DNA of 64,000 nucleotides from Candidatus Omnitrophota bacterium. GTDB taxonomy: Bacteria > Omnitrophota > Gorgyraeia > Gygaellales > Profunditerraquicolaceae. Numbering within the stretch: position 1 is the first letter of the stretch; every line of letters begins with the position of its first letter. The stretch lies in assembly GCA_041651115.1 (NCBI GenBank), contig JBAZJY010000005.1, positions 6,405 to 70,404 of the forward strand. Direction: 5' to 3'. Below are positions 6,726 to 62,500 of the stretch, in pieces. A program made the position numbers and the translations under genes. The notes below the pieces were generated by a model. That model did not search any database and was not told where the DNA came from. It worked only from the letters and a program-made list of their open reading frames with translations.

Positions 6726-6730
6726 ATCTA

Positions 6731-6795: not shown

Positions 6796-6796
6796 C

Positions 6797-8323: not shown

Positions 8324-8468
8324 GATTGACGCTTGTTTGTGCGGATGTTATAGTTAGATTGCGATTATAAATATATATATAAGGTAGGATGGTCGGGGGG
8401 GCCGGCCAAGCAAAGCCACGGATGATGTATACTAATTGTCTTTTTATGATTTTGTGGCGTGAAAGCTT

Positions 8469-8500
8469 GCAGCCGGCAGTATTCTGCCGGCTTTTTATTT
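8469..8500 (+). terminator. Rho-independent terminator-like hairpin just upstream of the first pilin gene
   Basis: Perfect 9-bp stem agccggcag / ctgccggct with loop tatt, followed by TTTTTATTT. It lies 10 nt before the pilin RBS (gggag), so it could also act as a 5'-UTR attenuator. Confidence 0.6.
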
Positions 8501-8510
8501 GGGAGTAAAA

Positions 8511-20633: not shown

Positions 20634-21260
20634 TCGTTAGGTTTAGTAATTAGGTTATGGTAAGGAAGCCGGTATGGTAGTTAGGTTATGGTTAAGTATA
20701 AAACCCGGATCGTTTTTTGAATTTAGTCCAAGACATTGACAGCTTATATAATTGCCTGCCCGAGATATCATATGAAGTAATAAGCTCATCGCATAGTTGC
20801 ATATTTATGGCATAGGAATATATATCTTTACACTGATTTAGACTCACTACCGTTTCATTACATTCTCCCATAGCATCATCAAGGTATTTTTGAAACCCCA
20901 TTTTTTGGTGTCTCTTGGCATAGCCTTCAGCTATCAATCTTGGGATAGCCTTACATGATCTCGCCAGTTGGTCTTTTAAATCATATTTTTCGTTATCAGG
21001 TAATCTCGGGATAATTTTTGTCATTACCTCTATGGCAGCTTTATAAGTGTTTTGGTACACATTCAAATCACAAAAACTTCTAATTGGTTTTTTAATTTCC
21101 ATAATTTGGTCCTATTTCTTCAGCTAGACTTAGAATACGATCGCCTTCTGTAATAATAGACGAATAAACAGAATAAATCTAACTCAAAAACATGTCATTT
21201 TAACCTAACCTTAACCCTTTAAACTATACTGGTTTCTTTACCATAACCTTAAACATAACC
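20634..21260. mobile_element. IR-flanked cassette: arms of the hairpin-repeat family enclosing a four-helix-bundle gene
   Basis: Left arm 20634-20696 (..ggttatggtaaggaagccggtatggtagttaggttatggttaag). Right arm 21199-21260 (aacctaaccttaacc..aaactatactgg..ccataaccttaaacataacc) is its reverse complement. In copies 1, 2 and 5 the arms abut across a short loop. Here they are ~500 bp apart with a gene between. Confidence 0.5.
20692..21102 (-). CDS. four-helix-bundle protein (23S rRNA intervening-sequence / Avd-like family)
   Basis: SFCDLNVYQNTYKAAIEVMTKIIPRLPDNEKYDLKDQLARSCKAIPRLIAEGYAKRHQKMGFQKYLDDAMGECNETVVSL matches the conserved F-x-DL-x-VWQ / IAEG signature of this family. Only convincing minus-strand gene in the window. 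Confidence 0.7.
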   Translation of the reverse strand: MEIKKPIRSFCDLNVYQNTYKAAIEVMTKIIPRLPDNEKYDLKDQLARSCKAIPRLIAEGYAKRHQKMGFQKYLDDAMGECNETVVSLNQCKDIYSYAINMQLCDELITSYDISGRQLYKLSMSWTKFKKRSGFYT

Positions 21261-41500: not shown

Positions 41501-44500
41501 GGTATAGAATTGTTTGCGGGCAATAAGAGCCCTGTGCATAAGGATGTGCTTTTAGGCAGGATGATCTTTGAGCTTGATGCCGAAAGCAACGCAGAAGTGA
41601 AAAAAGAATTGGAAAGCCTTTATGCTCAAGAAACCGGCTGGAATATTGAAAAATTACGCGTTGAACCTAATTACGAAGTAATGGCAGGGAAAGTTTCCGA
41701 AGAAATGAATAAGGTGTTTGAGGAAAAGGGCATCAATATAAAAATTCATCCTAAAGAGCAGATGGACGAAGTTACGCGGGCAAAGGGCGTATTTACTCCG
41801 GCTGCGGCAAACGTCAGCGAAGATTCAACCGAAGACGTAAGCATAGACTTTGCTGCTGAAAGTTTATTTGACGCGAAGATGTTCCTTAAGGCCTATCTGC
41901 ATGACGGCCACCATGCCCTGCTTACAAGGATGGGGTACAAATATGTGGTGGATAAAATACAGGCCTTTGATGCGCTTCTGCATAAGGTAGCTTCTGAAGC
42001 AAAAGACAAGGAATTAGAGAGTCTGCGTAAAGATATAATGAAGTACTTCAGCGGAGAAAAGGTCAAGAATGAGTTTACTGAAGAAAAAGAAAGCTATGAT
42101 CATACCGTTGACGCTTTCTATAAGAACAAGATTGCAGGAATTGAAAACGACGAGGCACAAAAGAAGGCTTATACGAATGAGGAATTCGCGAAAGACCTGA
42201 AGATATTGAAGAATCGCATTACTACCAGCCTGCACCTTACGAACAATGGGGTAGTCTTGCCTCAGAATAAGAAAATAATTAAGCAGCTAGAAAAAGCGAT
42301 CAACACCGCAGAGCAAACCCCGAGCCTTTCTTTTGAACAGATGGAGAAGATAACCAGAGATTTAAGGGCTATGCCTTTGCGTAAGTCAGATTTTGGTATT
42401 TCTATTGAGCAGCTTGGTCATTTGAGCGAAGAATTATATATGCGTTCAGCCGCCAGGTCTTCCTATAAATATACGCCGGCAGTGGTTAATTTGATGAAGA
42501 AAGTCAGGCAATACGGGCAGCTGGAAGAATTTTTAGTCAACTTGAACGCCGAGATCGGCATGCCCAAGATAGAAAATGTCATTTCCTCACCGCTTAAGCA
42601 GGCCGAACCCAAAGATATTGTCCTGGCAGGCGCAATTGCCGCAATGACCGGAGGTAAAGTTGTTGGTAGAGGCGCTAATATAGGTAAGGGTAACGGCTTT
42701 GGCGGCGATATTAAGGTAAGTGAGCCAATAAAGCCTGCAAATAAGAAGCAAGATAAGGAATCTTCGCCTCTTGAAAGGCAGCAGCCGGCCAATGTTCCTG
42801 TGGTACCGTTCAACCTGCCTATAGTCAACGTGGTCTTTGGCCAAAACAGCACTGGCTGGGGCGCTTTAGTCAGCTTCCTGGGCCGCAGCCAAACAAAGGC
42901 ATTTTCATCCAGCCCCATGGCATTATATGAGGCTGCACAAGTCAATATAGAAGACATATTACCCCTTAAGTCCCCAGTTTTACACCTTTCAACCGGCGTT
43001 GCCCCGCCTGTTGGCGCCTTCTTGGCTAAACTTTTTGCGCAAGCCTTAGCCAAGGTTGCAAATATAGGCGCAAATATAGTAGAATTTATAGCAGAAAGCA
43101 GCACAGTAGTAGAAGCAAATGGCAACATTTGGGGTTCTTGGAGTCTGTTCGCCGAGAATACCAGAGAAGCAGAAGGTGTAAGCGAAAAAACCAAATATGC
43201 CAGCAGTGCAGTTAATGATTCAACCATAGAAGACGCACTCCGCGCCACAAGCAACGGAGTTTTGCCTGTTTCCAGCCCGATTTTAGCTGATAAAACCTTA
43301 GAAACCAAAGCACGTATGGCCAGGCTTTTGATGATCCTGATGAAAGCTCAGCTTAAATACCGTAAATTAGGCACAAGCCTCTTTTCCAAAGACGAAACCC
43401 GCGATATCTTCTTGGAATCTGCCGGTATTATCAGCGATACCTTAATGTCCACTGCCAAGAATATCAATGGTAAGACCGTCAAAGAAGAAGCGGTTGAATC
43501 CCTGGATCAGTGGTTAGAAGAAACAATACAGACCCTTGGCCTGGACGCTAAAGATTTAGCTGAATTAGAACATGACATTGTGGATGAAAATCCTGATAAT
43601 AACAAGAGAGTTGGTTCCAGGATTTCTGATATGCGCAATGGCCTTGGTGATATGATTGAAACCGGTATTGATGTCCTTGGTACAGTAATAGGAGCTGATG
43701 AGGGGTTAAGAAGGGCCCTTGCCCTGGAAGGAACTGATCCGGGAACTAAGTATATATTGAGACAGATATTAGATGAGCAGAAGAAGATGTCTAAGAAGCT
43801 CACTGAAGTAGAAGAAAAAGCAGTGGAAGCTAATATCCAGGCAAAAGTAGCAGTTAAGGGCGTTGTAAAATATTTGAATACCGATAACCCCGTTGACTGC
43901 TTAATCTTTTCTATCTATGCCTTAGTAGACAGAAAAGCCGGTGAAAAACTGGAAAATCAGATCCGTATGTTAAGGGCAGAAGGTAAAGAGGTTTCCTTAG
44001 AGACTGCGATAGAGATAGCCCAGGGTATATTAGGTGCGTTTGCTTTCTCCGAGGAAGCTTTACGTCAGATGCCGGAAGAATTACTGAGCAGGCTTATATT
44101 AATGAAGAAAGTCGGAAATGGTAAATATCACGCCTTTAATGTCATGGGTAGAGAGTCTAATGGCGATTTGATTATTTCTGAAGATAATGCAGCTGCGCGT
44201 ACTGCAATAGGAAGAACCGTTTCTTTAAAAGATTTAGCTACATATAATGGAGATATCGTTGTGTTAGGCCTCAATACAGAAACGGAAGCATTAGAAAATG
44301 AAGGCGCAAGAAAATTAAGTGATAAAGAAGTAAAAGAAATTTCTAAAGAGATAAGAGATATACAGGGTGAAGGTAATGGCGCAGGCGCTGGCAACGGCAC
44401 AAGCGGCACCGGCACCACCGGTACAGATGCAGGCGGCGCTGGTTCTTCCCCTGCTGGCAATGGCGATGATGATAACGCAAGAGGCGCATTCGTCGGTGTA

Positions 44501-47500
44501 AATGGCTATACCAAGAGCACTGCCAAAAAGCAGGATCGTATATCAATCGCTCCTTTGAAGATTACCGGTCATATTGGCGTTAATTACGTCGGAAATAATA
44601 ATTATTTTGCATACGCCATTTATCACAATAGAGGGGCAAATGTTGTTTACACTATGGTTGATCCTAAAGATGCAAGCAGAGATCGCCAGTTAATTAATAA
44701 CTTTGGCAAAGTATTTAATGTGGCGTTAGTAATGTTGACGAATAGCAACAAAGATGCTGATACTCGCAGCAACGAAACAACGACTACAACTACAACAGCA
44801 ACCACCGTCAATAACAATAACCGCAATACTACCGGCAACGGATCAAACAACAACGAGATTGCTTCGCTCGCTATGCTCGCTGGCAATGACAAGATCAATA
44901 TCAATAGCACCGGCTTAATCAATCACAGCATTTATCCTTATACTAATATTACCTTAATTAACCTGTATGAAACCGCTCCTCCGGCAGGCAATGCTATATC
45001 CTCTCCTGCCGCAGAAAATACCACCGTTGAAAAGACCTCATCTTCTATTAGAAAATTCGATCTTGCTAAAACCTCAATTAATTTTGTTGTTTCCCTGATG
45101 TTCGGTAAGGAAGAAGGCCGCGACATATCAAATGAATGGGCAGCGGAAAGAGATGCGCGCAAAGCCACAGCTAAAGCAAAGAAAGAAGAAGTTTCCCATT
45201 CCCAGAGCCGCAGGAATTTCATTAAATTAGCAGTAGGGGTAAGCGCAGCTGCCGCTACGGTTGGCTTGATTGGTTTGTCTGGACAGGATAAAGAAGAGGC
45301 TGAAACTGCAGCCGAAACGCTGCGTTACGGATTGTTGACTGACATAGCTAAATTTGAATCCGGCAACACCATTACCGAAGGCGTAGTGGGGATCACCTCC
45401 GGCTACCTGGGCACAAACGAGATCCAGGCTAATCAGTGCGTTGTCGTCCTTACTTACGATAGCCGCAGTAATAAAGTGGTCCTGGCGCATATATTCTCCG
45501 GCGCCACGGATGAGATGGAATATAACTCCTATGTTTATAGCCCGGATGCGGCAAAAACCCAGGTCAGTAACCTCGCCGAAGTATTAAGACAGAACAATAT
45601 TGATCCTAAGGCGCTCGTAGCCAACGCGATTTATGCTTATCCGGTGCTTTATACCGAAGCCTATAATGAAATTGAGGCTGCTGTCCGCATGGCTGCTTTT
45701 AAAGATGCGGTTATTGAAGCCTTGAATAGAGAATTCGCTTCCGCAGCGGAATTCAATTATAACCAGAATACTATAAAGGTAGATGTGACCGCTGGAGAAT
45801 TAAGCGGCAGCGTGTACACCGGCACTTTAAACGACCTCGCCGAATTTGATATCGCCAAAGACAGCAGCCTGACAATGAAGCAGCCCGGCAACAGCCTTGC
45901 TATCCTGCTGGCCTTATTTGCCGGTTCAACATTCTTGATGGGCGGGTTAGTTTCATATGCATACAACAAGTTCTCCAAGAAGGCTGCCAATTCCAGCTCG
46001 CCGATCGTGCCGAACGCCGAAGAAATAATCATCAAAAAGATGATGGAGCGTTTTACGGATGGAAAGATTAACGGGATCAAGATTGATACTCTCATCTGGA
46101 ATGTCAGGACCTATAACGCAAGCCAGCAAGCCCCGGCGAAATTCGTGAGCCTGGCCAAGCCTGCCAGCTCGCCTATAGATAACCTGCCGGTTAATGGCAA
46201 GAATATGCCGGTTGGCTTACCTATTAATACGGCTGTCGCGGTTTCCGTAATTGCGGCTAACGGCACTGACGCAAATAATGATTTTGTTCAGCAGGCATTA
46301 GTTGCCGATGCAAAGAATTTAAAGACCAGCTCTTCTGCTGATGCGCTTACTGATAACTTAGCGGAATTATTCAAACTGAAAGCAATTATAACCAGCATCA
46401 AGGCGCAGGGTCCTCCTGCCTTTGTTGGTATTGTTTCTGCTGTTAGTGGGTCAGTAACAGAAACGCAAACCAACAAAGGAGGAAGCAATGGACGCAAGAT
46501 TGAGAAGAGTAAGATTAGACAGGTTTCAGGAGGAAATGAGGAGCTTAGAAACACAGTACGCCATACGGGAACTGGAACTACGCCGGGAAGAGAGAGAAAT
46601 ACCCGGAGAGTTTATTATTCCGGAAATGCCGGAAACCAGAAGGATTTTGAATTAATATCAGGCGTTAAATTCGTCTTCATCAAAGCGTTATTCAGCCGCT
46701 TAGGCGCTTTAGTTGCGTTGTTGTCGCGCAACGAAGCAGCATTTCATATTGATTCTACAGGCCCACCTTTAACTACCAAGAGAGAAAATCGGAGAAACCT
46801 TTTAACCAGGCTGCAAGCTATACCTTCCGTGGCAGGAAATATGGCTGCAGCCATTGTTGTATTCGGGAGCGCAGTGGCCCTCCTCCGGGGACTGACCCCC
46901 ACTGTTGCTCCCGTTACAACTATTCAAGGAGGTGTAACATGTGTAACATACGGTTTGAAGAACTTGAACTCGATCATATTGTCGAGTTCACAAAAGATTC
47001 AACGCTCTTTGTGGCAGCGCGCGAAAGCGTCAGCGGTTACCTTAGGCTCTTTCTTGTTCACAGCGTTACCGGAAACGTTTATACAAGAAATGGCCGTGTT
47101 GATTCGTGGGAACAACTCTTCGGATCAAATCGCGATGCAGTTCTCGCTCGCCTCGTCTCCGCTCGCAACGGAAAGCACATCCCTACCTATAAGATTAACG
47201 GCTCCCATAACAATTAATTCGGGGGCCGTTAGTTCCTCTCCTGTTAACTTAAAGGTTGCCGGGTTTATGGTTGGCGTGTTAATGGTATTAAGTGTCTTGG
47301 CAGCCAATGCGCAGAAGTTTCATATCGTACAGAAAGGTGAGACCATTTGGGGCATTACCGGCAATAATTGGCCGGTTATTTACGAAAAGAATCCCCAGAT
47401 ACAAAATAGGCCTGGTGAAAGAGTCTACCGTAGCCAGAGTGGGGATATTTATATTAAAGGCAGCAAGCGGGAAGCGCCCAATGATTACGACTTGGTTATT

Positions 47501-50500
47501 ATCTACCCGGGCGATACGATTGTCTTTGAGCCTAATGCGGCAGTAGCCACCACAGTTGCCCCCGAAAACAAGCCTGTTGCTCCGGCGGTTGATTCAGCTA
47601 AGATAGAGGCCCAGAATAAAGCCAAACTTGAAGCCCAGAAAAAAGCTGAAGCGGAGAAGGCTAAAATCGAGGCTGAGAAAAGGGCTGAAGAACTCAAGAA
47701 GCAGCAGGCTTTGAAAGAGCAGGCCAGGCAGGACAGCATAGCCAGAGCAGATAGTATAGCCAATGCAAAAGCCGCACAGCAAGAACTGCTTCAGGAAGAG
47801 AAGCCGGCCGCTGATTCAGTAAATATCGCAGATTCCCTTGCCAATGATACCGTTTTAACCACGGTTGCCCAGGAGCCGGTTGATACTGTTTTACCTGCCC
47901 CTGCCCAGCTTCAGGCCAAGGTTGACGCCGGCTTATCCGCCAAGATTGACCTGTATTTATCCTATATTTTATGGCTGGTGCCGGTACTTCTTTTATTGGC
48001 CATTGCAAAGAGGATATTCGGCAGACGTAATATAACCAAAGTTGATCCAACAGAAAAGAAGATAGGACCCGTAGAAGAATCAAAGGATGAGGAAGAAGCC
48101 GAATTAAAAGCCCAGCAAATAGATGATGCTTGGAAGAAATTTGAAAAAGACAATAAGAAAAAGCTCAATAAAACCGCCAAAGAAACCAAGACCTCAAAAG
48201 CAGGCGATATGGATAAGGCTTGGGAAGATAAGGCAAGGGCTGAAGCAGATGAAAAGAGTAAGCTTGAACAGGAAATAGATGATTATGAGAGCGCCTCCGG
48301 CGTTAAAGAAATATGGGAAATGTTTAATGAAGCCGCGCCTGAGGAAAAGCAGGTAATTAATACCGCCAAGGCAGAAGCCTTGAAACAAGTTGGAGCGGCA
48401 TTAGAGAGCGCGGCGCAGAAGCTTAATGATAAAAAGGTTGATGAGTGTATAGCAGAATTAGAAGAACTTAGGGACAATCTCAAGGATATGCCTTTTGAAG
48501 AAGAGAGAAAGGCGGAGTTTATAAATGGTATAAATAACTCTTTGGCTTTGATAAAAAGAGATTTCAAGAAAACAGAAACTATTTCTAATAAAGATAATGC
48601 TACCAGTAAGGACAACACCGTTAAGCAGAATAAAGAAACCGGTAAAAAGATATTAAAGATCTTTAAGAAATTATTCACTCTTGTTGCGGTCATTGGTCTT
48701 ATTCTCGGTGCTTTCTACGCTGCCTATAGCTTTTTCCAGAATAATCGTTCTGCATTAGCAGGAGTTCCTGCTAATTCCGGCGATGTAACCAATAAGGTCA
48801 TAACCGTAGATAGCATCCCCAGCGTAAGCCTTACCTCATTTGAAGGCCTTGGAACGTTCACGTTTTTACCTGAAGAAGAGCTCAAAACCGGATTTGCATC
48901 AGAAGGCGATCAGGAAGAATTCTGGGCATTAGTCAACGGCGAAGTCGGCAGATACAAAGCTTCTATGGAGCGCCATAAGCAGACCAACGTGATCAACCGC
49001 ACTTATGCCGGCCGCCTGCAAGACCATGAGGTACTCTTTAATAACGCATTCAATAACCTCATTCGCGATAATAGGGCAATCTTCATTGATATAGGCCCGG
49101 GCGTAGGTAATGCAGAGGGCCCGACCACTTCCCTGGAAATTGCCAAGGCATTCTCCGGTTATGACTTTACGGTTGTGGCGCTTGACCTGCTCGAATCTGT
49201 AACGATGTTTAACGATGAAGTCAGCCCGGCAGTGCAGGAAAAATATCTAAGCCAATCAAACCTCTTTATTATCAGCGGAGACGGCCTTGAGCCGCTTAAA
49301 CAGCAGATAAATAGTCGGATTCCGGCAGTAGGTACCGATGATGTTGTGATCATCCGCGCTGCCAACTCCATAGACGTATACTTTGAGCGGCCGGTAATTG
49401 AAAAATGGCTTAGCAGCGTTGCCGAAGATTTCAGGGAACAGAAAGTAGTGCTCTTATTCAACCGGGCGATCCTCGTCAAAGACAATAACAGCCTGCAGTG
49501 GAATTTTACCGGAAAGGTTTCTTCAAGAGGCTTCAATCATAACAGCCGGGCAATAACGCCTTATGGCGCAGGGTATCCGGCTGCTTATGTTATCTTAAAT
49601 ACTACAAGCTCAAGCCCCTTAAAGGCCAGGAGCAAATTTAACGAATATCTTAAATACGGCCTGCTCATTCTGGCTTATATGAGTTATACGGGCTTGGCCC
49701 TTACCCTTTACAATAGCCTGCTTGTGGAATATATCGCCAGCCATATCTTGAACCTCTTGATTGTAAATTCAATCGTCGCCCTGCCGGTCGGCCCCTTAAG
49801 CAGCTATATCAACCAGAGCTATAAAGTGAATATTAAAAAGGAAACGCCGCGCATTGACCGCAGTAAGGTATTAAGCGTGCTTAAGGTATTTCCTTACTTT
49901 GTATTGATCTGGGGCACTCTCTGGTACGGCATTCTTCTGCCCATAATCCCCGCGGCAGCCATGCTTATCATTCCTGCGGTTTTCCTGGGGATTTACATAA
50001 AGCATTCCCGTGTTGGCATCTTCTCTGTAAAGGCGCTTAAGGCGACGCTTATCGCTGCTGCCGTCGGAACTTCAATATATCTGCTTATGCCTTTCATCCC
50101 GCATTATATTGCTACGGCAATGATCAACGAGCTGATCTGGTCTCCTTTATTATCTTACAGGCTGGCTTCCCTGCTTTTTAACTACCATGTGGAGAAGCGC
50201 ACGCTTAAACAGAGCCTCAAGAACGCTAGTAGCATAGGATATAAGATATACATTGTCACTCTTATCCCCTGGATATCCGTAATGTCCTTCGGCGCGATGT
50301 TTGAGCCTGTGACGACCTTTGTCATTGTTGAAGTAGCCACCCTTATTGAGAGTGTCTTCATACTTAGATGGATAGACGCGAATGAGATTAAAATATTTGA
50401 TTCGGTGGCCGGAAAGCTAAAAGGCATTACCAGCCGCCGCGGCGCGGTCATGACGACCGTTACTACCAGCTCGCCGGTTGAAGCGGAGCAGTTATTTAAG

Positions 50501-53500
50501 ATAGCTGAAGCTGCTGTAGGCAAGGAGAATATGGCGATCATTGAAAAGGCCCAGGCGGTTGCCGCGGCAGTGCATGCTTCCAAAAAAGATAAAGCAGCTG
50601 TTCAGGAAAGCCTTGAACTGGCTGCTATATTGATTGAGATTTCAGGCAGTATTTTTGCCGCGGATGGAGATAAAAAGGCCTATGCTCAGCTTATTGCCGC
50701 ATCTCTGATGTTCGGCCTTCCTTCCCAGAGTATAGAGGCGTCATTCGGCAAACAGGGCAAGGATATCGCCAAATTAGTAAATAAAATAAAGTTTGCCGTC
50801 TCTACCACCGCCTACGAACATAACAGTAAAGATAATTACCATCTGAATAAGTTTAAAAATATGATCAAGGATATCCTTGATACCACCGAAGAAGTAATGC
50901 TTTACTTTGCAGTCAGGATGCTTGAGCTGAAAATTTCAGAAGATATCACCAGCCTCAAGAATGAGGAATTCATTTATGTGGTTGCCGCCATTGCCTACGA
51001 TTACCATCTCAAGGAATTGGGAAATGAAATCCGCAAGCAGTCGCTGATGAAATTCAGCCCGCAATCATGCACGGATATTTCCACGAAGATAGAAGAAGCA
51101 ACCGGGATGGATGAAGAGACCTCAAAGGTTTACATCGGTTATCTTATTGAGCAGCTCAAAAAGGAACTGGCAGCGCAGGGAGTAAACGTTGCCAAATTTG
51201 AGTTCTCCGGCAGGCGTAAGGATTTTGTGAGCACCCTTGAGAAGATAAATGATCGGGATTATGAGTTTGAAGCAATATCTGACCTTTTCGCCCTCAGAAT
51301 AGTTACGAGGGATGAAGACAGGTGTTGGGAGGCCTTCAGCAAATTAAGGGCTGCCCTGCAGGAAGAAGATTCGCTATTAGGGCAGGAAAATTCCGAGGAT
51401 TTTGATGATTATATCTCCAAGCCCAGAGGCGGCTATCAGGCCTTGCACGGCTCAATATGGCACCCTATCAATAAAACCCTTATCCCCGATACGTTAAAAG
51501 ATGCGATTTACGGAGAAGGCAATATTGTCGGAGTAGAAGTGCAGATCCGTACTGAAAAAATGGATAAAATTGCTAAAACCGTCCTTGCCGACCATGAACG
51601 CAAGGCAGAAAATAGCGGGCATAAGCATTATGATTATGCCTTTATGCGCGAGGCAGGAGAGAGTTTAGCCCAGAACATCGCTGCGGTCAAGGAGCAGATC
51701 TGGTTTGGCGACGAAGAGCATAAGTGGGGCAAATCGGTATTCGTGAATGTTTCCCGTAAGGGTAAAGAGGAGAGGATTTTTGTCATACCGGTGAGCGAAA
51801 ACGGGCCTACAGTTGTGGACGCGCTTAGCCACCGCCGTTCAGCGTTTGAGGCTATTCCGAATAACCTGCGTTTGAGCCTGGTATTACGCGACCGCGATAC
51901 GGAAACCGAAAAAACAGTAAAGATTATTGTAGACTCAAGCGGAAAAAACCTTGGCATTTCCTATTTGGGATATGTCTTGCGCAGCGGAGACCGCGTTAAT
52001 ATAGAATTTAGCGAACCTTATAAGAAGGGCCAGGGAGTTTCCAATCTACCTGCCAAATTCCTGCAGTATGCGACTACCTACCGGGCAAAGGTGCTTGCGG
52101 TTGCGGTAGATGAAAATAAGAGAAAAGACCTGATCAATAGCGGCCGGCAGATCCTGAATTCAAAGAAAAACGGGATATTCCTGTCTGATCCGAATATACG
52201 CAGCTACCTGGAGTTAATTACCCGCAATCTCTATCCCTTAAGAGCAGAGTCATGGTCTGATGAATTAAGCATTGCCATTGCCGCCGGTATTATTGATGTG
52301 GCAGAGGTAAAATCCATTATTGACCAGATGCAGGCAAAGATCAACGTTGTTTTTGACAGCGCGCGCAAAACTTCCAGCTCGCCGGTTTCCACTATTATTG
52401 ATATAGCTGTGGAATTATTAAGATTTGGTTCCGTGGATTTAATGGTGGGCCAGAGAAAATTATCAGTTAATCTGGCTTCAGAATCAAGTTTGGGCAACAT
52501 AGAGAAAATACTCTTGCAGTTGTATTCAGGCGCCGGACGCATCGGCTTCAGATATTTTACCGTTAACCCGAATACCAGAGAAGCCATTGCAGATGATACG
52601 CTGTATTGCGGAGAAGAAAAGGTCGGCATACAAATAATTCATAATGAACAGCATAGCGGATTGGCCTTATTCCTTACCAATCTTTCAAGGGCCATTGCTG
52701 CTTTAAAGAATTCCACAGTTTTTATCGTTAAGCGCGTTGACTACGAATACCACATCCATAACGCTTTTCAGTCAGTTAATACAAGAGAGGCCGGGCCGTT
52801 AGAGATGGTCCTTAGGAAAGCCGGCTTCGTTGCCTTAGAAGAAAAGGCAGAGACAGTATCCATACCGCGCCATCATTCTAGGGATACAAAGGCATTATCG
52901 CTTTCGATGGTGTGTAACCTTAAACAGCCCATTGTTGGCTCAACGATCAAGGTAGCTGAAACCTGGGGCGAAGGCAATATAGTCGCGAGGGAGTATTTGC
53001 CGGAAATTATCGGCCGTAACACCAGCTCGCCGCTTGAGGCAGTCAAATTCGGCGCGGTGGTGGCTGGTGGATTGATCGTATCTAGTCCGATAGAGATAAT
53101 TTTAATAAGCAAAGATGGTAAGCGAGAGGCGTTGGAGGTTAATTTCCCGGCCATCCCTTCTGATATGCCAACCCAAAAGCAGCTTATTAAGCGGGCATTA
53201 TTAGAAAACCATGGAACAATGCCGCGTTATTCCCGCCACTCATATATTCAGCCTGAGCCTATAAGGCGCCCTTTTGGGACCTACCGGAAAGTTTGTGGAA
53301 ATAGCAAGATAAATTCAGATGGTTCAATACTGGACGATATTCTTAGCGATAAGATGAAATCATTTTTCTCTTGGCTGGCGGGTATGGATACGCTTACCGC
53401 AGCCGCAATGTTGGTCCTTGTGCCTGCCATAAAGCTTGTGGATGGACTTTGCAGCCTGGGAGAAAAGATATTCTTTGCCATAGCCAATGCGCTTTACAAG

Positions 53501-56500
53501 CCTAGTGCCATGAAATACAGGGTTCAGCGCTTCTTTTCGGGATTGTCACACTTAGACGAACTGACCGCAGCCGCAATGCTGGTTCTTGTGCCTGCCATAA
53601 AGCTTGTGGATGGACTTTGCAGCCTGGGAGAAAAGATATTCTTTGCCATAGCCAACGCCTTTTACAAACCCAGCGCCCTGAAATACAAAATCCAGAATTT
53701 CTTCTCTAGCTTTAGCGGTATGGATGAGCTTACCGCAGCCGCAATGTTGGTCCTTGTGCCGTTTATATCATTATTAGATAAAATCGCAAATGCGGGCGAA
53801 AGGATATTAGATGTAATTGATATCCGCGGTAAAGTTAATGCATTTAAACTTAACACAGAACGTTTTCTTTTAGGCTTAGCAAATACAGATGTATTAACTG
53901 CGGTTGGAATGATTATCTTAGCGGTTCCTATGTATTTGATGAATAAACTATGGCTAAAGAGAGTTAGGTTGGCTGTTTTTGGTCTGACTTTTATGACTCT
54001 TGCTTCTTCATTCACGATCCCTTCAGAGGCAGCAATACTTGATAATAAAGTTGCGAAATTGAATACAATAAAGGCAAAAGCTTTTGAAGACGGTAAACTT
54101 GATTATAAAGAAGTTATTAAAATAGATGAAGCTTACGAAAATGTATTAGAAAAAGAAATAGCCGCGTTAGGATGGGAAGCAGGAGCCAGCGCGCGTAAAG
54201 AAAAGATAAAAGAGATTACCGGACAAATTAAGAATGAAAAAGACGCAAATAAGCTTACGGAACTTAAGAAAGAATTGCTCCAGCTTTATAAATTGCAGCT
54301 AATATATTATCAGGATAAGGTGGAATTGGAATCACGGAAGATGGCCGAGCTTAGCGAAAAGAACAAAAAGAAGCATAGCGACCGGATTGAAGAGAAAATC
54401 AATGAGAAGATAGACAATATTGCTGATGCGACAAAAGAGCTTAAGGATACCTATAATGAACAGTGGCCGATGTTAAAAGAAGTCATCGCTGAAGTAGAGC
54501 CTAATGTTAAAACAGCCGAAGATATAGCATTTTTACAGGATTTATATAGGATGGCCGTAGATAACCGCAGCTTTGTCTTAAAAAGCCTGGATGAATCGAG
54601 CAAAGAACAAGCCATAGTAAAACAAGAATTAGATTATTATTCCAGCAAGATCCCGGAATATAAAGAGAGCAGAGAAATTGCGGATAGCCAGGAAAAGTCC
54701 GAAGCTACAAATACACCTAATATGGCCGATACCCAAATAGCGGGAACAGAGAATAAGGCTTATAAGCCGGAAGGTAAAATTGAAGAAATTAATAAGGTTA
54801 TTGAAGCAATAAATGATAAAACATTAGAAATCGTAGCGGATATGGCCAAGAAAGAAACGGCTTTTGAAGGGTTGGAATATTATTGGCAGATTATTAAGGC
54901 GGCTGAAGAAAATAATGAAAATGGCAGATTTGATACCCAGATAGCCGAAATCAGGAAACTGTATGATCTTGCCCGCATTTTAGAAGGATATAACCGTAAG
55001 GATGCTGATATAAGCTATTCTACCCGTATCAATCTTATTGATTTTATGTTCCTTAACCGCGCAGCCGGCACTGAAGACACCTATTTGGATATGTTAAAGG
55101 GTACAGATACACTCTTGGCAGATGATATTAATGAAGCGGTTTTGGCAGTAGAGCTTAATGCAGTGCCCTTACTTAAAGATATACGGCTGTATGAAAACGC
55201 AACTGTTACGATTAACAAACAGATAAAAACTTCCAATGATGCACTAGCTAAGGCAGATGCTGATGCGAAAGATATTTATCAGAGCCTTATTGAAGAAAAT
55301 ACCAAGCTCGTAAATATATTTACCGATTTGACTAAAGTTTTAAGAGAAAGATTAAATCTTAGCGACAAGTATAAAACGATTCAAACCGGCAGCAAGGGAG
55401 AAAGGATTGTTGTTATTGCATTGCCCCCGGAAGAAGAGGATAAGCTTAATGATGCGGAAAATAAGTTTAAGCAAGAAATCAATGCCATAAGCGCAAAAGG
55501 TAAAGTTTTAGGAGAAGCTGCCAAATTATATCAGGAGCGTAAAGGTGAGAGAGACACGGATAAGATCAAGCTGATAGATTTGAAGATCAGTTTAGTTAGA
55601 AAACAATTGGCAGGCGCAGTTTTACTTGATAAAAACATCCAGGCTGCTTTACAGGAAGTCAACAATACGCCCAACAGAGAAAGGCCGGCGTTAATTGAAA
55701 AGAAGATTTCAGGGCTTAAGGGGCTGGATTTGGGGTATAAGAATGATTTTAGCGAGATGCTGAATATCAGCCGCCAGATCAGTGAGCAGGAGAAGAAAAT
55801 AGCTGATAAGCAGGGCTTAGAGGAAAAATTAGCTCAAGCCGGCGCAAATAATAAGGAGTCCGAAATTAACGCGGAAGCTGCCGATGAATCGACCAAGAAA
55901 TCAGCCAAGGCAGTAGTAAAACTTTTCTTGGAAAAATTAGGCGTTCCGGAATTAAACGATACAATTGATGCTAATGCTTGGGATAATCTTAACACGCTTG
56001 AACAGTGGCTCGCGGAAAACGTCTTTATCGGCACATTAAAGGATGCGGATGCTAACGAGCTCTTGGGAATTGCCCTTTCGGCAATATACCGGACAACAAT
56101 ATCTCTTAAAGAGATCAGGGGCCAGCCAATGGGCGCTATAGAGATAAAGTATGAGTATCGTCGGGAAGAGATAGCCGGCAAAAGCAGCACCGATAACAAT
56201 ATGTCTATTTTCTACTTTGTCGGCGGCATACGCGTGAGCGAAAAATCACTTTCTTTTGTCGGTGGCGTGAATTTGGGCGGGGAGCTGGATAATATTGGCC
56301 GTTCCATTGCGGAAATGTTCAAAAAGACAATTACTCGCAAAGACCTGATTTCTTTACAGGAAGAGATCGGCAATAAGATCACCAGCAAGATTGAAGAAAT
56401 AGAAAAAGCAAGAATTGATATCATTGCTGCGGCGCGGAAGGTGCAGTTGATTGACGCAAGAGAAAAGAACGGAGAGATTCTTCCTTACAGCCGCCAGGAA

Positions 56501-59500
56501 GCAGAGTTGGATTTACTTGCGGCGCAGGAAAATTACTATAAGGTTACTGAAAATTATTTTGGCAAAGACAAAGGCCAGTATGTAGCTATTGACCGTGGTA
56601 ATTGGACCATAAAGATTAAAGATATTAACATAGAAATTGACGATGATAAGGCTGTGAAAAAAGCATTAACAGACTTAATGAGAGAAGATTTGAATAATGT
56701 GCAGAAAGGCCTTGAGGATTATCTTAATAATAATTTAGCGCGCTACCGCGTGCCTAAGGCTCATGTAGGTTTCATCAGCCGCACCCTTTCCCATATTTTT
56801 GTTAATCTCGGCGCTACCTTTACCGGCGTAAGGATCCAGCAGGGTTTGGTTGTAAGCTGGACCTTATGGGATGGGGGACGCAAGTTTGAAGAAGCCCTGA
56901 AGCTATTGGAAGACGGAGGAAAAGTATTACAGATTGAGCAGGAAATCGCGGAGTTAGATGCTTTGATTATTGAGTTCAACGGTTTTTATGAGGCCGCAGG
57001 TGACAATGATATAGAAAAGAAATACTACAGCCTTTACGCCGCTATTACGTTGGAGGCTCATCGGGATATGCTTCGTGATGAACTGAAGCAGGACACTAAG
57101 GGCATGCTTAAAGCTCCCAGAGCTAAAAATCACACCAAGACCGATAAAAATATCCCAGCCACCACTAATTTTAGCACTGTTTCGGAGCCGGCAGATGATG
57201 ATATTCTCGTTGACTACGCGGAAGGGGTTATTGATGGATTTGTCGCTAAGAAGACCTTGTCCGTAGATTGCACCATTGTCGCTAATGATGCTCCGGCAGG
57301 CAGGATCAGCGAAGCTAATAGCACTAACTGGAGGCTTTATGAAAGAGGGAATATCGCAGATGAAGCTGGAAAGACTGCGGAAGAGAAGATCAAAGAAGCC
57401 GGAAATGAACTTTGGAAGAATGCCACGCAGAGTAGCAGGGTGATATCGGATAAGCAGGAATTATTTATTCTTGCTGAAAGTTTCAGCCGCTATACGATGG
57501 TTAATTTTGACGTAATCAAGGCCTGGTTTGAGGCTAAGGCCGATCAGTTATCAGCAGAAGAAAGCTGGATAAAGGCCAAAATAGAAGCTTTAGCTGAAAT
57601 GAGGCTGGAGCAGTTAGACTCAAGAAGGCAGAAATTATTAAAAGAGAAATTTGATCTTGCGGCAGAAGGAAAAGATATTACAGCGGTTGAAACCAAACTA
57701 GGGCTAATAGAAACAGAAGCAATGGCCATAAACGCTGGTTGGAAAACTAATGCGGATCAGGAAAAGGCAATAAAAGACGCCCTGACGGAGCAATTCAAGC
57801 AGAAGTGGGATGCCTGGTTTAGCCCGGCAAGCAAGAATGGCAAATTAGATAAGTTCAGTGATGAGTTAAAAAGAATAATCCAGCCGGAGCTGGATAAGTA
57901 TAGTAATATTTTTGATTTATTATCTGAAATAGTAACAACCGGTAAGCTCGCCGGAAAAGACGTCCGTCCAGAACTCATAAAGGAAGTTTACCGGTTGTTA
58001 AGCGCAGTATTGGTAGATCTTTCCGGAACAATAAGGTTGGTAGGTGCGGTTGAGGTGGAGATTAATGGCGTAAAGACAACCATTGACAACAGCATATTAA
58101 GCCAGAAGCAAGCGGACCTGCAGAAATCCTATTCTACAAGAGAAACTGATAGAATTAATGCGCTAAAGAAATATAACGATGAGAAAGACAAGCTCATAAC
58201 CGACATCCTCGTAAATACCAAAGACAGCAAGTCCAAGAAAAATACAAACCAGAAGTCTGCGGATATCTTAATTTCTGAATGGAATGATTTATTTAAAAAG
58301 AATGCTCAATACTTTAACTCAACAGATGGCGATTACGAGCTTCAGTTGATCAGTACCTATGAAGATATTTTTAGCAAGCAATTAAACGCCTCAAACCTGA
58401 AGAATAAATCTCCTCCGTCCGTAGATGATTTCAACGCCGCCGTTAATACATTCTATTCCGCGTATGACAAATTAAACGATGATAATAAATCCAAGATCAA
58501 TAGTATTTTAAGAGTATTTACCCACCCCAAGAATAACGCTCAGCTCGATCTCTCTGACGGTTTAAATGACGATGATCGTTATATACTTGGCTATAGAAGC
58601 GGCCTCATTTATGGTGACAATGGTAAAATCATAAACGATTTTGATATCCTCATGCAGTCATTTATTGCCGTCTACGATCATCTTAATAAAGGTGCCTTTA
58701 ACCATCCTTACGAAAGAATAGATTATCTGGAAGAGTTCATAGCTTCCGCATATCCTGCCTACAGTAGAAAAGTAACAGTTTCCTTAGTAAATGTCCTCGG
58801 CGTGCTGCAATACAGCGAAGGCAAAGAAGTATCACCCGAATATAGAGAATTTCTCCAAAATTCCGTTAAAGCGCTGGTAGTTTTAAGCGGAGATATTTTT
58901 GAAATAGATCTCACTAAAGATACCAAATTTGACCGCCAGCTTAGCCGCAGGCTTGAAGACATCAAGAAACGTTTTCAAACTTCTATAGATGAAGCCGCAC
59001 TTCCTTACAGCCTGATCCAGATAGAAAAAGCCATAAAAGTGGCAGCTGCTGATCCCAGCCTTGACCAGAGTTTTGTCCAAGAATTGGAAAGCCTGCGCCA
59101 GCAATATGTCAGCCAGTATATGAATTATGCCCTTGCTGCGCAGCGTTCTTATCTGAAATTCTTAGCCAATAATCCCCGCGCAATTAATGTAAGCATAGCT
59201 TCAGATTACACTATGTGCGCCATACTCTTGGCTTATTCCGGATTATCCATGGCCCTGCCGCAAAAGGATAATAAGCAGGAAATAAATGCCTATCTTAACG
59301 TCGTAAAGCAGACCGTTGAGAAGCTGATGCCGCCGAAAGCCACTCCTACTTCAGATGACCATCTTTATTACGATCATGAGGGATTATATATCAGGACCAT
59401 CGTAATAAGGAATGGCCAGCCCTTAGAGAAATATTTGACTCCTGATGAATACCTTGAACTGTTAATGAGGAACATAATTTATCAGGATAACAACTTTATC

Positions 59501-62500
59501 CTCGGGACCAATCAGGAAGGTTTTGACACCATCAATCACGATACATTTGCCAGCACAAACAATAATTATTCCTATTACGGCCGTGCCTTTAATCAGTTCA
59601 GCCTTGGAGAATTAAATGACGGCCAGATCAACCTGAACGCGGTTTATAGTTTCTGGTTGAACGCGGAAGATTCTAATTGGAAAGGCTTAAAAGATGCGTC
59701 AGAGGAAGGGATATTAAGAAAGCCTAACCAGCAGAGGATGAGCATTGATCTTGGCCATAATGGCAATAACAACCAGAGCATGCGCATAGATTACATTATC
59801 AGCGAAAGTTCTAATAAGAGGGAGTTGGATTCCCTGAACGGAGAGATCGCTTCTCTAGAAAATGAATTAAGCGTATTGGAAAATAAAGACCCGGCCCAAT
59901 TGACCCAGGAAGAATTAACTCGCATTAATCAATTGAACAATCAAATTACAGAAAAGAACGCCAACAAAGAAGAATTAAAGGGCAAGGATATGTATGATGA
60001 GAAAATGGTCCTGACTTTTAATCAGAACGGAGAACATGTCTCCTTTACCGTGGGCGCGGAAATAAAAGAAAATCAGGGCTATGGCGTTGAGGGTGCTGAA
60101 GATAAAGATAAGAAATATGATGCGCGAGTGCTTGCCGGAGTAAACGCATCTTATAACACAGATAAGAATTCCGATTACCGGGGTAATCTTGGGATATACT
60201 TGACTGAAGGAATGGTTTCTGTGAACTGGAATCAGGATCTTGGCGGATTCCAGCTTAGGTTTAATGCCAATAAAGATTACAACAGCAATAGCCAGGATGA
60301 ATATTCTTCCGATTATAAGAGCAGCCGCATTGGCCTTGAAGTAACCCGTGAATCATCTGTAAATAAACAGTTCATGACCGGTATAGGGTTTATGTCTTCT
60401 GAATATTCCGGCGATAACCTGCAGAAAAAAGAGGATATTGTTTATGTAGTGATGAAAGGCCCCGGGCTGCTTGGAGCGGATAATCTTGACTTGAGGATAG
60501 GCTATGATATGGAGAATGACAGGCCGGTATTGGATTTCAACATACAGGGCACTGCCGGCAAGTGGAATCCGCATTTTGGCATCAGCTCTTTTAGCGAAGA
60601 ATATTTTGAATTAACCGCAGGGGTAAAATATACCAATGATAGAGGAAGCTATATTGAAACCACCGCGAATGCCTCTGAAGATTACTTTGGCTGGGGCGTC
60701 AGGATGGGCAATCGTTGGGGCAATATCTTAGCCGGAGCCAACACCCGTTTTGCTACGGTCCAGGCCAGGGTTAATCCTTTTGCCTCTATCTTTAAGAGCA
60801 AGGCTGTGAATGCGGGAGATAAGAAAGATAATTTTGCCGCTCAAGGCGACATCATCTATGAGGAAGATCTTGAACAGCTAGCCAAAAACCTGCAGCAGGC
60901 ATTTAATGAAGTTCCCGGATCAAAAAAGAAGGTTTTCTCTTTTGTTGACCAATTAAAAGGCTTAGTTAAAGGCAAAAAGACGGTTTACAAATCATGGATA
61001 GATTTAGCGGAGAACTTAGGCGAAAATGTAACAGATATGAAGGATAACGAACTGGATAAGTTTAACAAGTTCTATCTGGTTGAGAAGTTCTTTAATAAGG
61101 AAAATAGAAAACACCCGACATTATTTAAGGATTTTGACGAATTATTTGAATATATACAAATAGCAGCAGAGCTGGAAACTGCCGAAGGTAAGAGCCTTAA
61201 GGATTATCTTTATCTGAATAATCCTTCCCAGCAGATAGACATCGCTGAAAATGAACTGGTTTTCTGGGAGGCAGTAACAACGGCAGGAATGATTAAGAAA
61301 TATGTAGATGAAGGATCAACCCTGGATGAGGCCAAGAGAAAAGTAACAGAAACATTATCCCGCTCAATTGAAATTGAAGAAGAGGTGGGAGGGCTTTTCG
61401 CCGGAAGATTCTTGCCCGGAGACGAAGAAAACCTGGCAGTCTTAAGGTTCTTCCGTTCTCTGGATACGAAAGATATCAAAAATACTGAAGATTTTCTGGT
61501 CGCCTTAAAAAATTACCTGCCGGCAATAAGCAAGATCTATAAGCAGGAGAATAATAAGGGATTGGACCTCTCCAGCAAGGAAGGAATGCAATACGTGCTG
61601 GATTGGATGGCGGTATTGAGCAACAACAAGGAAGATGATCAGCAGATGCTCAATAATGTCCTCTGGCTCTTAGAAGGTGGCGTCAAAATCGCCGATGCCA
61701 AGGCGCAAGCAAAGGATATTCACGGCGCAATGATTACCGCCGGTAACTACAAATACTCCAAGGAAACCGTGGATAACCTGATAATTATTAACCGGTTAAC
61801 CGGAGATTGGCAGTTGGCCGCGGAGATGATTAATCTCTTCCGCTATAGCGTGGTTGAGGATGTGCTGAAAAATGCGCTGGCTGAAGTAAATAAATATGGG
61901 GTCAAGAAGGACGATAATATCAAGTTCTACGGCAATCTGGTTTATAGAGAATATGTCACCCTGCAGAACAATGGCAAGCCCAGCGGTAATATTCCTTATA
62001 TCTTAGATGTTAGAAATGTTGCTCTGCGGGCTGGAGTAGAATTGAATGATTCTGCCAGCCACTATGACAGCTTAGTTTACTGGGCAGGAATTTTAAGGAT
62101 CCTTGAAGGCAAGCAAGATAAGGCGCAGGCATTGGAACGCTTAGAAACAGTTTTTGTGATTAATAGAGGCAGCTTTTCTTCCCGCTTAACCCATAATTCT
62201 AATTTGATAAAGTTTATTTTAGGCGAGCAGGCAATAGACAATGTCTCTATCAAGAACAAGGAAGAGTTAGGCGGTTCAGTTAGCGAGGCAAAGAAGTTCA
62301 TTGGCTTAGTCCTGAAAGAATCCGGGGCAGCTTCTCAAGACAAAAAATTGAACAGCCTGCAATTTAAGAGCTCCAACTTGATCAGGGAACCGGCTAATGA
62401 CGGAAACACAACCATATATCTGCCCGCAGGGTTATTCTCTAATAACAATGAGTTGACCAAGGCGATTATCCATGAGACTGGCGCCTTATTAGGCTTTGAG

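Follow-up and report, generated by a model that had tools for sequence, protein, structure and literature searches.

Long RSH enzymes are free cytosolic, ribosome-associated stringent factors, and to our knowledge every toxic or exported alarmone synthetase known is a minimal SAS-type domain. The toxSAS enzymes (FaRel, FaRel2, PhRel and CapRel), the Tas1/Apk1-type enzymes and EAS share the SYNTH fold and the catalytic Asp/Glu with the unit described here, while such toxSAS or secreted synthetases consist of a single SYNTH domain without HD, TGS or AH domains, which usually lies at a C-terminus and comes with an antitoxin, an immunity protein or export. Some of these are fused to secretion-system delivery domains (PMC12691689). 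The giant proteins of Omnitrophota often carry cytoplasmic-type enzyme and regulatory domains, and their cleavage points were stated to be unknown in 2023 (West-Roberts 2023, bioRxiv 10.1101/2023.11.21.568195). Here we describe a RelA-like unit located within such a giant protein.

The giant ORF and its long-RSH-type unit

The window analysed, a stretch of 64,000 nucleotides from a Candidatus Omnitrophota MAG, contains a giant ORF downstream of a Tad pilus locus (Table 1). The frame is open from a stop at 29498 to the window end, and its first ATG coincides with the start called on ENA contig k141_3079565; the gene length is a lower bound, with at least 11,491 codons in the window and at least 11,798 aa on k141_3079565, where the contig end cuts the gene. 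The upstream Tad genes encode RcpC/CpaB, a secretin, a TadE/G-like protein, two T2SSF proteins and an ATPase carrying ParA-like and T2SSE domains, which bears out the adjoining pilus and secretion locus mentioned in an earlier note on this DNA. Pfam scans of all 11,491 aa returned only Peptidase_C39 and RelA_SpoT, with no PAAR/Rhs, LXG/WXG, MuF, XopAD or DUF4157 delivery domains detected, and neither Pfam nor a purpose-built HD HMM found a second RSH-type HD hydrolase in this sequence. The locus has the features of an Omnitrophota giant gene: more than 10,000 aa, an N-terminal C39-like peptidase, several hydrophobic helices, preceding Tad-like genes and an Omnitrophota genome.

Table 1. Features of the giant ORF and of the RSH unit within it
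Feature	Residues (aa)	Position in window	Strand	Remarks
Giant ORF		29528..64000	+	At least 11,491 aa in window, no stop; RSH unit inside
N-terminal hydrophobic segment, signal anchor with K/R-rich N-terminal flank	51-69	29678..29734	+	Kyte-Doolittle scan
Peptidase_C39-like domain	201-281	30128..30370	+	Pfam PF03412, E 1.8e-8, 34.8 bits
Multi-pass hydrophobic unit directly before RSH unit, roughly 8 helices	~6709-6948	49652..50371	+	K/R-rich tail after
SSPV delimiter, N-terminal edge of RSH unit	6981-6984	50468..50479	+	Column-exact with SSPI of L002
All-helical pseudo-HD domain and connecting helices	6988-7216	50489..51175	+	Weak HD_4 match, E 0.023; AF2 helices, pLDDT ~90
SYNTH (RelA_SpoT) domain	7217-7362	51176..51613	+	Pfam core 51209-51595
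TGS-like beta-grasp domain	~7403-7494	51734..52009	+	AF2 strands E416-E507; aligns to Rel/RelA TGS
Helical (AH-like) domain	~7509-7614	52052..52369	+	AF2 helices H522-H627, pLDDT 80-95; clade-conserved
SSPV delimiter, C-terminal edge of RSH unit	7617-7620	52376..52387	+	Model confidence and L002 similarity end here

The earlier note had recognised the motif blocks of a RelA/SpoT-like domain, in order, in 51209-51615 of the forward strand and placed the domain around residue 7,200 of the giant protein. Both observations stand, as this stretch corresponds to aa 7228-7362 and its translation gives GRRKDFVSTLEK, DLFALRIV, YISKPRGGYQALH and EVQIRTEKM, and the assignment to the RelA/SpoT fold is supported by a profile-HMM search (Pfam PF04607, E 2.6e-16, with 60.3 bits where the cutoff is 27) and by NCBIfam spoT_relA (E 1.6e-18). 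With regard to catalysis, which the note had left to be checked, the protein retains every residue that is invariant across 69 long RSHs (R7229, K7231, S7235, K7239, D7252, R7257, D7294, Y7303, H7307, E7337, Q7339 and R7341, with D7252 equivalent to EcRelA D275), and the sole change in the catalytic and substrate-binding motif set relative to these 69 proteins is K to R at aa 7300. The helix following EVQIRT (AE.G.AAHW.YK in long RSHs) is diverged. There are no antisense ORFs of at least 50 aa overlapping the synthetase core. From its sequence, 51209-51615 encodes an RSH-superfamily synthetase domain with an intact set of catalytic residues.

This domain is part of an RSH unit of ~630 aa (aa 6988-7617), made up of a degenerate HD domain, the intact synthetase, a TGS-like beta-grasp and a helical domain, for which the AF2 model has a pTM of 0.77 and high pLDDT throughout, with low confidence past aa 7617. 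The pseudo-HD domain has LMFGLP in place of the Rel LLHDxxED, and the metal and catalytic motif is gone; an active bifunctional Rel was ruled out by the absence of this HD/ED motif. That the domain preceding SYNTH has the HD fold is indicated by the TIGR00691 and PDB alignments, which extend through it, by Rel/RelA alignments beginning at ~chain residue 7-10, and by AF2 helices matching Rel NTD structures. The TGS-like region (pLDDT 65-91) keeps P7421, T7428, D7431, L7484, G7487 and V7490, has the conserved TGS histidine displaced by two residues, and goes undetected by Pfam TGS, while for the AH-like domain the Foldseek alignment covers the entire 6yxa chain. The CC..HC columns of the ZFD/RIS are gaps in the window protein, and the Zn ligands are absent; hhalign of aa 7621-7832 gave a ZFD-motif resemblance at only 0.9% probability, which is insignificant, and no ACT/RRM C-terminal domain was detected. 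Support for a full-length long RSH, with ZFD and ACT, is lacking beyond this one ZFD-like string, and since neither domain was detected, RelA-style ribosome activation is doubtful.

Classification and relatives

The toxSAS-type label of the earlier note did not survive the analysis, as the unit is of the RelA-like, hydrolase-dead long-RSH type rather than of the stand-alone or toxSAS type, with pseudo-HD, TGS-like and helical domains accompanying SYNTH. The TIGR00691 match spans model positions 58-337, PDB phmmer matches are to RelA/Rel only and align from ~chain residue 7 to 320, and all matches in the word-index search (69/69) are ~730-aa proteins with HD, SYNTH, TGS and ACT domains. A profile of the clade of relatives searched against the PDB matched long RSHs only, with E-values from 9e-32 to 1e-16 and E. 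coli RelA as the best (8.9e-32). Structure prediction confirmed the RSH fold, but not the toxSAS affinity: the top Foldseek matches of the AF2 model were B. subtilis Rel 6yxa (2.7e-17), RelA and full-length SpoT, whereas SAS matched at ~1e-6 and CapRel at ~1e-4, in 47th place or lower and ~13 orders of magnitude in E behind Rel. An origin from SAS or toxSAS was rejected on this fold rank, far below the long RSHs, and on the clade profile finding no SAS or toxSAS PDB chain at E<=10. Where long RSHs are free-standing proteins of ~700-800 aa, this unit is embedded in an ORF of at least 11,491 aa.

Word-indexed homologue searches, both with the single sequence and with the clade profile, gave canonical ~730-aa RSHs only and no giant relatives, and a scan of metagenome_contigs gave one canonical 722-aa Rel only; an exhaustive search was needed to find the clade. 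The closest relative, L002, shows 60% identity to the RSH unit over 663 aa versus 47, 43, 37 and 32% for other segments, and on this sequence comparison the unit is the most strongly conserved part of the giant protein so far. Pfam and PDB searches yielded no usable match for two further blocks of the window protein that are conserved in L002 (aa 5227-5905 and 8142-8813). No clade member has kept the HD motif. Of the six others compared with the window protein, five (L002, L003/P0072, L004/P0070, L005 and P0071) retain nearly every residue that does not vary among active long RSHs, the Mg-binding Asp and the EVQIRT Glu among them. The sixth, P0073/L006, has kept the entire unit and lost the active-site R, Q, R and T, so the RSH fold can persist without catalysis. 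A few relatives are found in other large Omnitrophota proteins, together with Sigma70_r2, HD_5 (HD-GYP-type), GerE (LuxR), Response_reg and PGM domains, and P0071 has an intact Rel-type HD domain ~900 aa downstream.

Flanking motifs, topology and proposed function

The SSP[VILA] motif is strongly over-represented, and brackets the RSH unit at conserved positions. A DNA-level repeat as the origin of this motif was ruled out, as the codons differ among the copies. The multi-pass hydrophobic unit upstream is missing at the corresponding position in L002, and the window protein has ~13 uncertain helices upstream of the RSH unit, so that deriving its topology from helix counting was abandoned as unreliable. 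L002 has a Tat-like signal, a single return helix with K-rich sequence after it, and no further clear helix, and its simplest topology would place the RSH unit in the cytoplasm. In the window protein the cytoplasmic side is favoured by the K/R-rich tail past the last helix and by the absence of a signal sequence at the start of the unit. The signalling context also favours a cytoplasmic reading, with sigma-70, LuxR and receiver domains in the relatives and the Rel-type HD domain in P0071.

The reading we prefer, and to which we give about an even chance, is that the unit, captured as a cassette by a giant membrane protein of Omnitrophota, is a regulated (p)ppGpp synthetase with a dead hydrolase that works in the cytoplasm of the producer. 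The RSH unit would move pyrophosphate from ATP onto GDP or GTP, yielding (p)ppGpp, with its output probably controlled via the retained pseudo-HD, TGS-like and helical domains and not by an immunity protein. It would probably sit on the cytoplasmic face of the producer's membrane, either tethered to the giant protein or, should processing occur at the flanking SSPV motifs, set free, and would let stringent-type physiology follow either the condition of the giant-protein/Tad apparatus or the status of translation. As the unit has no hydrolase of its own, degradation of (p)ppGpp must fall to an enzyme encoded elsewhere.

A different destination is conceivable but unlikely: the giant protein and the Tad-like apparatus would carry or release the RSH unit, as an effector, into prey or host cells, where overproduction of (p)ppGpp or another pyrophosphorylated nucleotide would arrest or reprogram the target. 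Published accounts present Omnitrophota as predators or host-dependent organisms whose giant proteins, preceded by a secretion or pilus system, are implicated in attacking prey, and the Tad locus supplies this context here; the giant protein also has an N-terminal signal anchor and C39-like peptidase, and internal signal-like segments and conserved delimiters suggest processing. Likewise, P0071 and P0079 have signal-like N-terminal segments and almost no further helices and could, judged by these features, be exported whole, and there are precedents for exported synthetases that make (p)ppGpp and are toxic in the cytoplasm (PMC12691689). However, the known exported or toxic synthetases are all minimal SAS-type SYNTH domains, the survey cited having deliberately left out large multidomain RSH proteins, whereas this unit is of the long-RSH type and keeps its regulatory domains at 60% identity, lies mid-protein where polymorphic toxins are C-terminal, is accompanied by no detected PAAR/Rhs/LXG/MuF-type delivery domain in the 11,491 aa, and has relatives whose neighbouring domains are of sigma-70, LuxR, receiver and HD-GYP type, with an intact Rel-type hydrolase in one of them. 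There is also a slim chance that the giant ORF is a polyprotein of exchangeable SSP[V/I/L]-delimited cassettes, in which processing at SSPV would free a ~636-aa hydrolase-dead RelA-like enzyme, either as the cell's own contact-coupled stringent factor or as a prey effector. If true, this would be the first long-RSH-type alarmone synthetase deployed via a giant-protein/Tad-like apparatus, and SSP[V/I/L] would give the giant proteins of Omnitrophota their first candidate cleavage signal.

The remaining alternatives concern the activity itself. It is distinctly improbable that the RSH fold serves as a non-catalytic nucleotide-, tRNA- or ribosome-binding or scaffold domain with negligible alarmone synthesis: P0073/L006 keeps the unit despite its four lost active-site residues, the post-EVQIRT helix is diverged, ZFD and ACT are missing and the HD half is already a pseudo-enzyme, but the window protein and five of the six clade members compared keep nearly all active-site invariants, which, at overall identities of 29-60%, indicates selection for catalysis. 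Very unlikely is a different chemistry, in which an active unit pyrophosphorylates ATP or ADP to (p)ppApp, or the tRNA 3' end, like FaRel/Tas1 or CapRel/FaRel2, respectively. A TGS-like domain is retained beside the active site, and the TGS of RelA touches the CCA end of tRNA. All three chemistries are compatible with the RSH fold (PMC11782079), but the acceptor-site elements of the GDP/GTP-type long RSHs are kept here (Y7303, Q7304, H7307 and an acidic DFDD resembling the EFDD of RelA), and no affinity to any toxSAS could be detected at the sequence level.

Comparison with known systems

As in the Omnitrophota giant proteins described to date (Archaeovorin, dockerin and multi-enzyme classes; bioRxiv 10.1101/2023.11.21.568195 and 10.64898/2026.06.07.730766), the protein in the window has a C39-like peptidase near an N-terminal signal segment, many hydrophobic helices, a T2SS/Tad-like locus before it and embedded cytoplasmic-type enzyme or regulatory domains. 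RelA/SpoT, ppGpp and alarmone are unmentioned in the text of both reports and in one supplementary file of the latter, a literature search combining Omnitrophota with ppGpp or the stringent response gave nothing relevant, and we found no earlier description of a RelA-type unit placed inside a giant Omnitrophota protein. Compared with the 2023 account there is the conserved SSP[VILA] delimiter bracketing the RSH unit, and these flanking motifs offer a testable answer to where, and whether, Omnitrophota giant proteins are cut. The unit itself, expressible at ~630 aa, provides a concrete handle on what at least one part of such a protein does.

Residues 1-556 of B. subtilis Rel (6yxa; NTD-TGS-AH) match the RSH unit, with its TGS-like domain, in domain content, with 635 aligned columns covering essentially the whole chain, but B. 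subtilis Rel is a bifunctional, free cytosolic protein of ~730 aa with an active HD domain, whereas the HD domain here is degenerate and the unit embedded. Monofunctional E. coli RelA (PDB 5iqr, 5kpv) likewise combines a lost hydrolase motif with an intact synthetase in the order pseudo-HD, SYNTH, TGS (here TGS-like) and helical domain, and both have the acidic (E/D)xDD motif, albeit at 15-17% identity in the structural alignment. As the RSH unit comes from Omnitrophota, its loss of the hydrolase is probably independent of the proteobacterial RelA lineage. Unlike E. coli RelA, it has no detectable zinc-finger/RIS or ACT/RRM, its AAHW.YK helix is diverged, and it is embedded ~7,000 residues into a membrane protein of >11,500 aa. 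This suggests that alarmone signalling is wired to the giant-protein/Tad machinery in an ultra-small, reportedly host-dependent bacterium, and adds to the free stringent factors and the minimal toxic synthetases a third arrangement, in which a giant envelope-spanning protein incorporates a RelA-like unit that has TGS-like and helical domains but lacks the C-terminus that anchors long RSHs to the ribosome.

Identity of the synthetase domain

The peptide quoted in the earlier note as a toxSAS-type domain (toxic small alarmone synthetase) near residue 7,200 of the giant protein was matched exactly by translation of the (+) strand, and because the frame runs open from its first ATG at 29528, the synthetase motifs fall at residues 7228-7362. 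Pfam RelA_SpoT matches this region with an E-value of 2.6e-16 (60.3 bits, against a gathering score of 27) and NCBIfam spoT_relA with 1.6e-18, and the match is beyond chance. The alignment with the NCBIfam model, which describes long RSHs (RelA/SpoT homologues: Rel, RelA and SpoT), spans model positions 58-337. A PDB phmmer search found RelA and Rel only, from approximately chain residue 7 to 320 and thus including the HD half, while all 69 homologues from a word index were proteins of ~730 aa with HD_4, RelA_SpoT, TGS and ACT domains (22-31% identity). A profile built from the clade of close relatives only matched E. coli RelA (8.9e-32) and B. subtilis Rel (1.7e-28), and no small alarmone synthetase or toxSAS chain in the PDB even at E<=10.

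An AlphaFold2 model of aa 6988-7760 (pTM 0.77, high confidence for aa 6988-7617) shows an all-helical domain, an alpha/beta SYNTH (synthetase) domain, a beta-grasp and a helical domain, in that order. Foldseek ranked B. subtilis Rel 1-556 first (6yxa, E 2.7e-17, 635 aligned columns), followed by ribosome-bound RelA and full-length SpoT, and then by RelP/RelQ (~1e-6) and CapRel (~1e-4). From the sequence profiles, the domain order and this ranking, the RSH unit (aa 6988-7617) belongs to the RSH superfamily and is of long-RSH descent, with pseudo-HD, SYNTH, TGS-like and helical (AH) domains. Profile search and structure prediction thus uphold the RelA/SpoT assignment of the earlier note, but its toxSAS label had to be abandoned, as every testable toxSAS feature failed. 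No zinc-finger (ZFD) or ACT/RRM domain was detected. The string QPIVGSTIKVAETWGEGNIVAREYLPEI at aa 7800-7827 is in register with the long-RSH ZFD motif PiPGD.I.G.iT.G.G..iHR..CpN, without its Cys/His zinc ligands; the resemblance is statistically insignificant (hhalign probability 0.9%), and is therefore a lead and not evidence.

Active sites and relatives

Alignment with the 69 long RSHs showed that all synthetase-core residues conserved in at least 90% are retained (R7229, K7231, S7235, K7239, D7252, A7255, R7257, C7266, D7294, P7299, Y7303, L7306, H7307, E7337, V7338, Q7339, I7340, R7341 and M7345), with a single K to R change at 7300, so that the catalytic set is otherwise intact. G7228, R7229, K7231, D7252, Y7303 and H7307 are equivalent to G251, R252, K254, D275, Y319 and H323 of E. 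coli RelA, and the DFDD of the RSH unit is the counterpart of the RelA EFDD. In the window protein LMFGLP takes the place of the HD/ED hydrolase motif, which is gone in all clade members, making the unit RelA-like in being hydrolase-dead. Divergence is seen in the helix past EVQIRT, which reads AE.G.AAHW.YK in long RSHs, and the conserved TGS histidine is displaced by two residues.

When 1.84 billion cluster representatives were scanned exhaustively with phmmer, four close relatives emerged (E 5e-59 to 2e-41), consisting of a 709-aa contig-length fragment and proteins of 1,682 and 2,292 aa, each on a short contig, and a fourth protein of 6,022 aa (P0071); more distant embedded RSH units are present in 3,619-aa and 1,072-aa proteins. 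A genome scan gave five loci, in three Omnitrophota MAGs, one MAG labelled Planctomycetales (L002, the closest relative, at 61% identity) and one unclassified bacterium, all with the match within an ORF filling or nearly filling its contig. The synthetase set is nearly full in L002, L003/P0072, L004/P0070, L005 and P0071, with isolated changes (histidine to glutamine in P0071, arginine to lysine in P0070, for example), and four of its residues are lost in P0073/L006. Companion domains in the relatives are Sigma70_r2, HD_5 (an HD-GYP-type HD domain), GerE/LuxR and Response_reg. P0071 combines a hydrolase-dead RSH unit (aa 3750-4262) with a separate intact Rel-type HD hydrolase (aa 5140-5295, LLHDTLEDG ... 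ADRIHNLRTL, E 1e-14) ~900 residues further along the same polypeptide.

Cassette boundaries and the giant-gene locus

The L002 and window proteins are collinear, and their best-conserved stretch is the RSH unit (aa 6968-7622, 60% identity over 663 aa), which is under strong purifying selection; other blocks have 47, 43, 37 and 32% identity, and in the remainder similarity is undetectable. An SSPV stands at either edge of the unit (aa 6981 and aa 7617), the second being the endpoint of both AlphaFold2 confidence and L002 similarity, and the unit's boundaries are cassette-like. The window protein has 14 copies of SSP[VILA], against a shuffle expectation of 0.5 (maximum 3), and L002 has 15 against 0.4 expected; in the overlap region 6 of the 10 window copies, among them the two that flank the RSH unit, share an exact alignment column with a copy in L002. 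As the codons vary from copy to copy, selection acts on the protein sequence of the motif, which looks like a candidate inter-cassette delimiter or processing site; cleavage points of giant proteins have been stated to be unknown (bioRxiv 10.1101/2023.11.21.568195). Just upstream of the RSH unit is a hydrophobic membrane unit of ~8 helices (aa 6709-6948), and since just 17 residues separate its two delimiters in L002 (ORF aa 3310-3330), it represents cassette gain or loss. In P0072/L003 (Omnitrophota MAG JBDRBM010000027.1) another recurring string, P(K/R)LASGETI, is found on both flanks of the RSH unit, which suggests that delimiter motifs may be lineage-specific.

Several post-delimiter units open with signal-like segments; the start of the RSH unit has none. 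A Tat-like signal (SRRNFIK... / SRRNFIKLAVGVSAAAATVGLIGL) lies >5,200 residues from the N-terminus, immediately past an SSPI motif, is kept in L002 and has a weak, below-threshold Pfam TAT_signal match (E 0.012). Directly past an SSPV, a Sec-like segment (aa 5907-5928) ends in ANA|QK, and the stretch which follows (HIVQKGETIWGI...IIYPGDTIVF) is LysM-like as read by eye, not as reported by Pfam; the region resembles the beginning of an independent, secreted peptidoglycan-binding protein joined in frame. Further downstream, the hydrophobic string (E)LTAAAMLVLVPAIKLVDGLCSL recurs at a spacing of ~56 aa as part of a ~56-aa unit present in 3-4 tandem copies. Among the stretches shared with L002, aa 8142-8813 (47-48% identity) rank second in conservation; this block has a signal-like start (WLKRVLRPLKRLAVFGLTFMTLASS...) and then a long K/E-rich stretch, helical-looking by composition, and gave no Pfam or PDB match.

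Features of the window and of the giant protein
Feature	Position	Strand	Residues	Remark
Unusual Tad locus fusions	2488-4101, 4111-6264	+		secretin; ATPase
136-aa ORF	20692-21102	-		Pfam 23S_rRNA_IVP (PF05635) on ENA contig; between pilus genes and 2,515-aa ORF
2,515-aa ORF	21562-29109	+		directly upstream of giant gene; NCBI: hypothetical protein (WC532_08835)
SSP[VILA] copies	42584-53092	+	4353-7855	
Tat-like signal	45203-45277	+	5226-5250	
Sec-like and LysM-like region	47246-47527	+	5907-6000	
Delimiters around ~8-helix unit	49610-50479	+	6695-6984	
Synthetase motifs	51209-51615	+	7228-7362	
ZFD-like string	52925-53008	+	7800-7827	
Tandem ~56-aa units	53375-53944	+	7950-8139	
Second conserved block	53951-55966	+	8142-8813	

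The giant ORF is preceded by a stop at 29498 and continues for 11,491 codons without a stop to the window end; on ENA metagenome contig k141_3079565 the gene start is identical and the product, cut by the contig end, has at least 11,798 aa. Besides RelA_SpoT, the only above-threshold Pfam domain is Peptidase_C39-like (aa 201-281). The pilus and secretion locus of the earlier note is indeed present upstream of the giant gene, as a PPIase and a Tad pilus set (RcpC/CpaB, a secretin with TonB_C tail, an ATPase with ParA-like and T2SSE domains, a TadE/G-like protein and two T2SSF proteins), and this Tad/C39 arrangement agrees with the layout published for Omnitrophota giant-gene loci (bioRxiv 10.1101/2023.11.21.568195, 10.64898/2026.06.07.730766). 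Two of the fusions are unusual: the TonB_C domain is C-terminal on the secretin, and a single 717-aa ATPase joins a ParA/MinD-like part (AAA_31/CbiA, possibly TadZ-like) to a T2SSE (TadA-like) part. The 2,515-aa ORF has neither Pfam matches nor SSP[VILA] motifs.

Proposed activity and known systems

With a full synthetase residue set, a dead hydrolase, and TGS-like and helical domains in a long-RSH-type unit, the RSH unit would convert ATP and GDP/GTP to (p)ppGpp, with its accessory domains exerting allosteric control over synthesis. A change of chemistry to (p)ppApp synthesis or tRNA pyrophosphorylation is very improbable given the RelA-like acceptor-site residues. That the unit is non-catalytic is quite unlikely: P0073 points to it, but the window protein and all but one of the six other clade members compared conserve the catalytic residues near-completely.

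The site of action would be the cytoplasmic side of the producer's membrane, as argued by the K/R-rich tail past the last upstream helix together with the lack of a signal sequence at the unit start, by the simplest topology of L002 (Tat-like signal, periplasmic domain, one return helix and K-rich sequence, then no clear helix up to the unit), by the enzyme's requirement for NTP substrates, and by the own-cell transcription and signalling domains of the relatives. The intact hydrolase of P0071 would likewise put synthesis and degradation in one compartment. Delivery of the unit as an effector would fit the lifestyle of the organism, the adjoining Tad system, the N-terminal signal and C39 domain of the window protein, and the signal-like N-termini of P0071 and of another relative (P0079), which have almost no other helices; furthermore, exported, cytoplasm-toxic (p)ppGpp synthetases were recently found (PMC12691689). 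However, known toxic or exported synthetases are all minimal SAS-type domains, that survey explicitly excluded multidomain RSHs, and no delivery domain is detectable in the window protein, leaving delivery unlikely. As relA+ E. coli does not survive the loss of SpoT, a separate hydrolase is predicted elsewhere in the producer genome. With ZFD and ACT undetected, it is doubtful that ribosomes activate the unit in the classical way; regulation via neighbouring parts of the giant protein, or by tRNA through the TGS-like domain, would be speculative.

The two giant-gene papers (bioRxiv 10.1101/2023.11.21.568195, 10.64898/2026.06.07.730766) do not mention RelA/SpoT, ppGpp or alarmones, and a full-text literature search for Omnitrophota with ppGpp or stringent response gave nothing relevant. 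A long-RSH enzyme inside a giant protein is thus a deployment so far unreported, less dramatic than a toxSAS effector, with biochemistry which is directly testable. Long RSHs are free-standing and carry ZFD and ACT domains, whereas the RSH unit is embedded in the giant protein and neither domain was detected, and its likeliest working analogues are E. coli RelA and the N-terminal, TGS and AH fragment of Rel.
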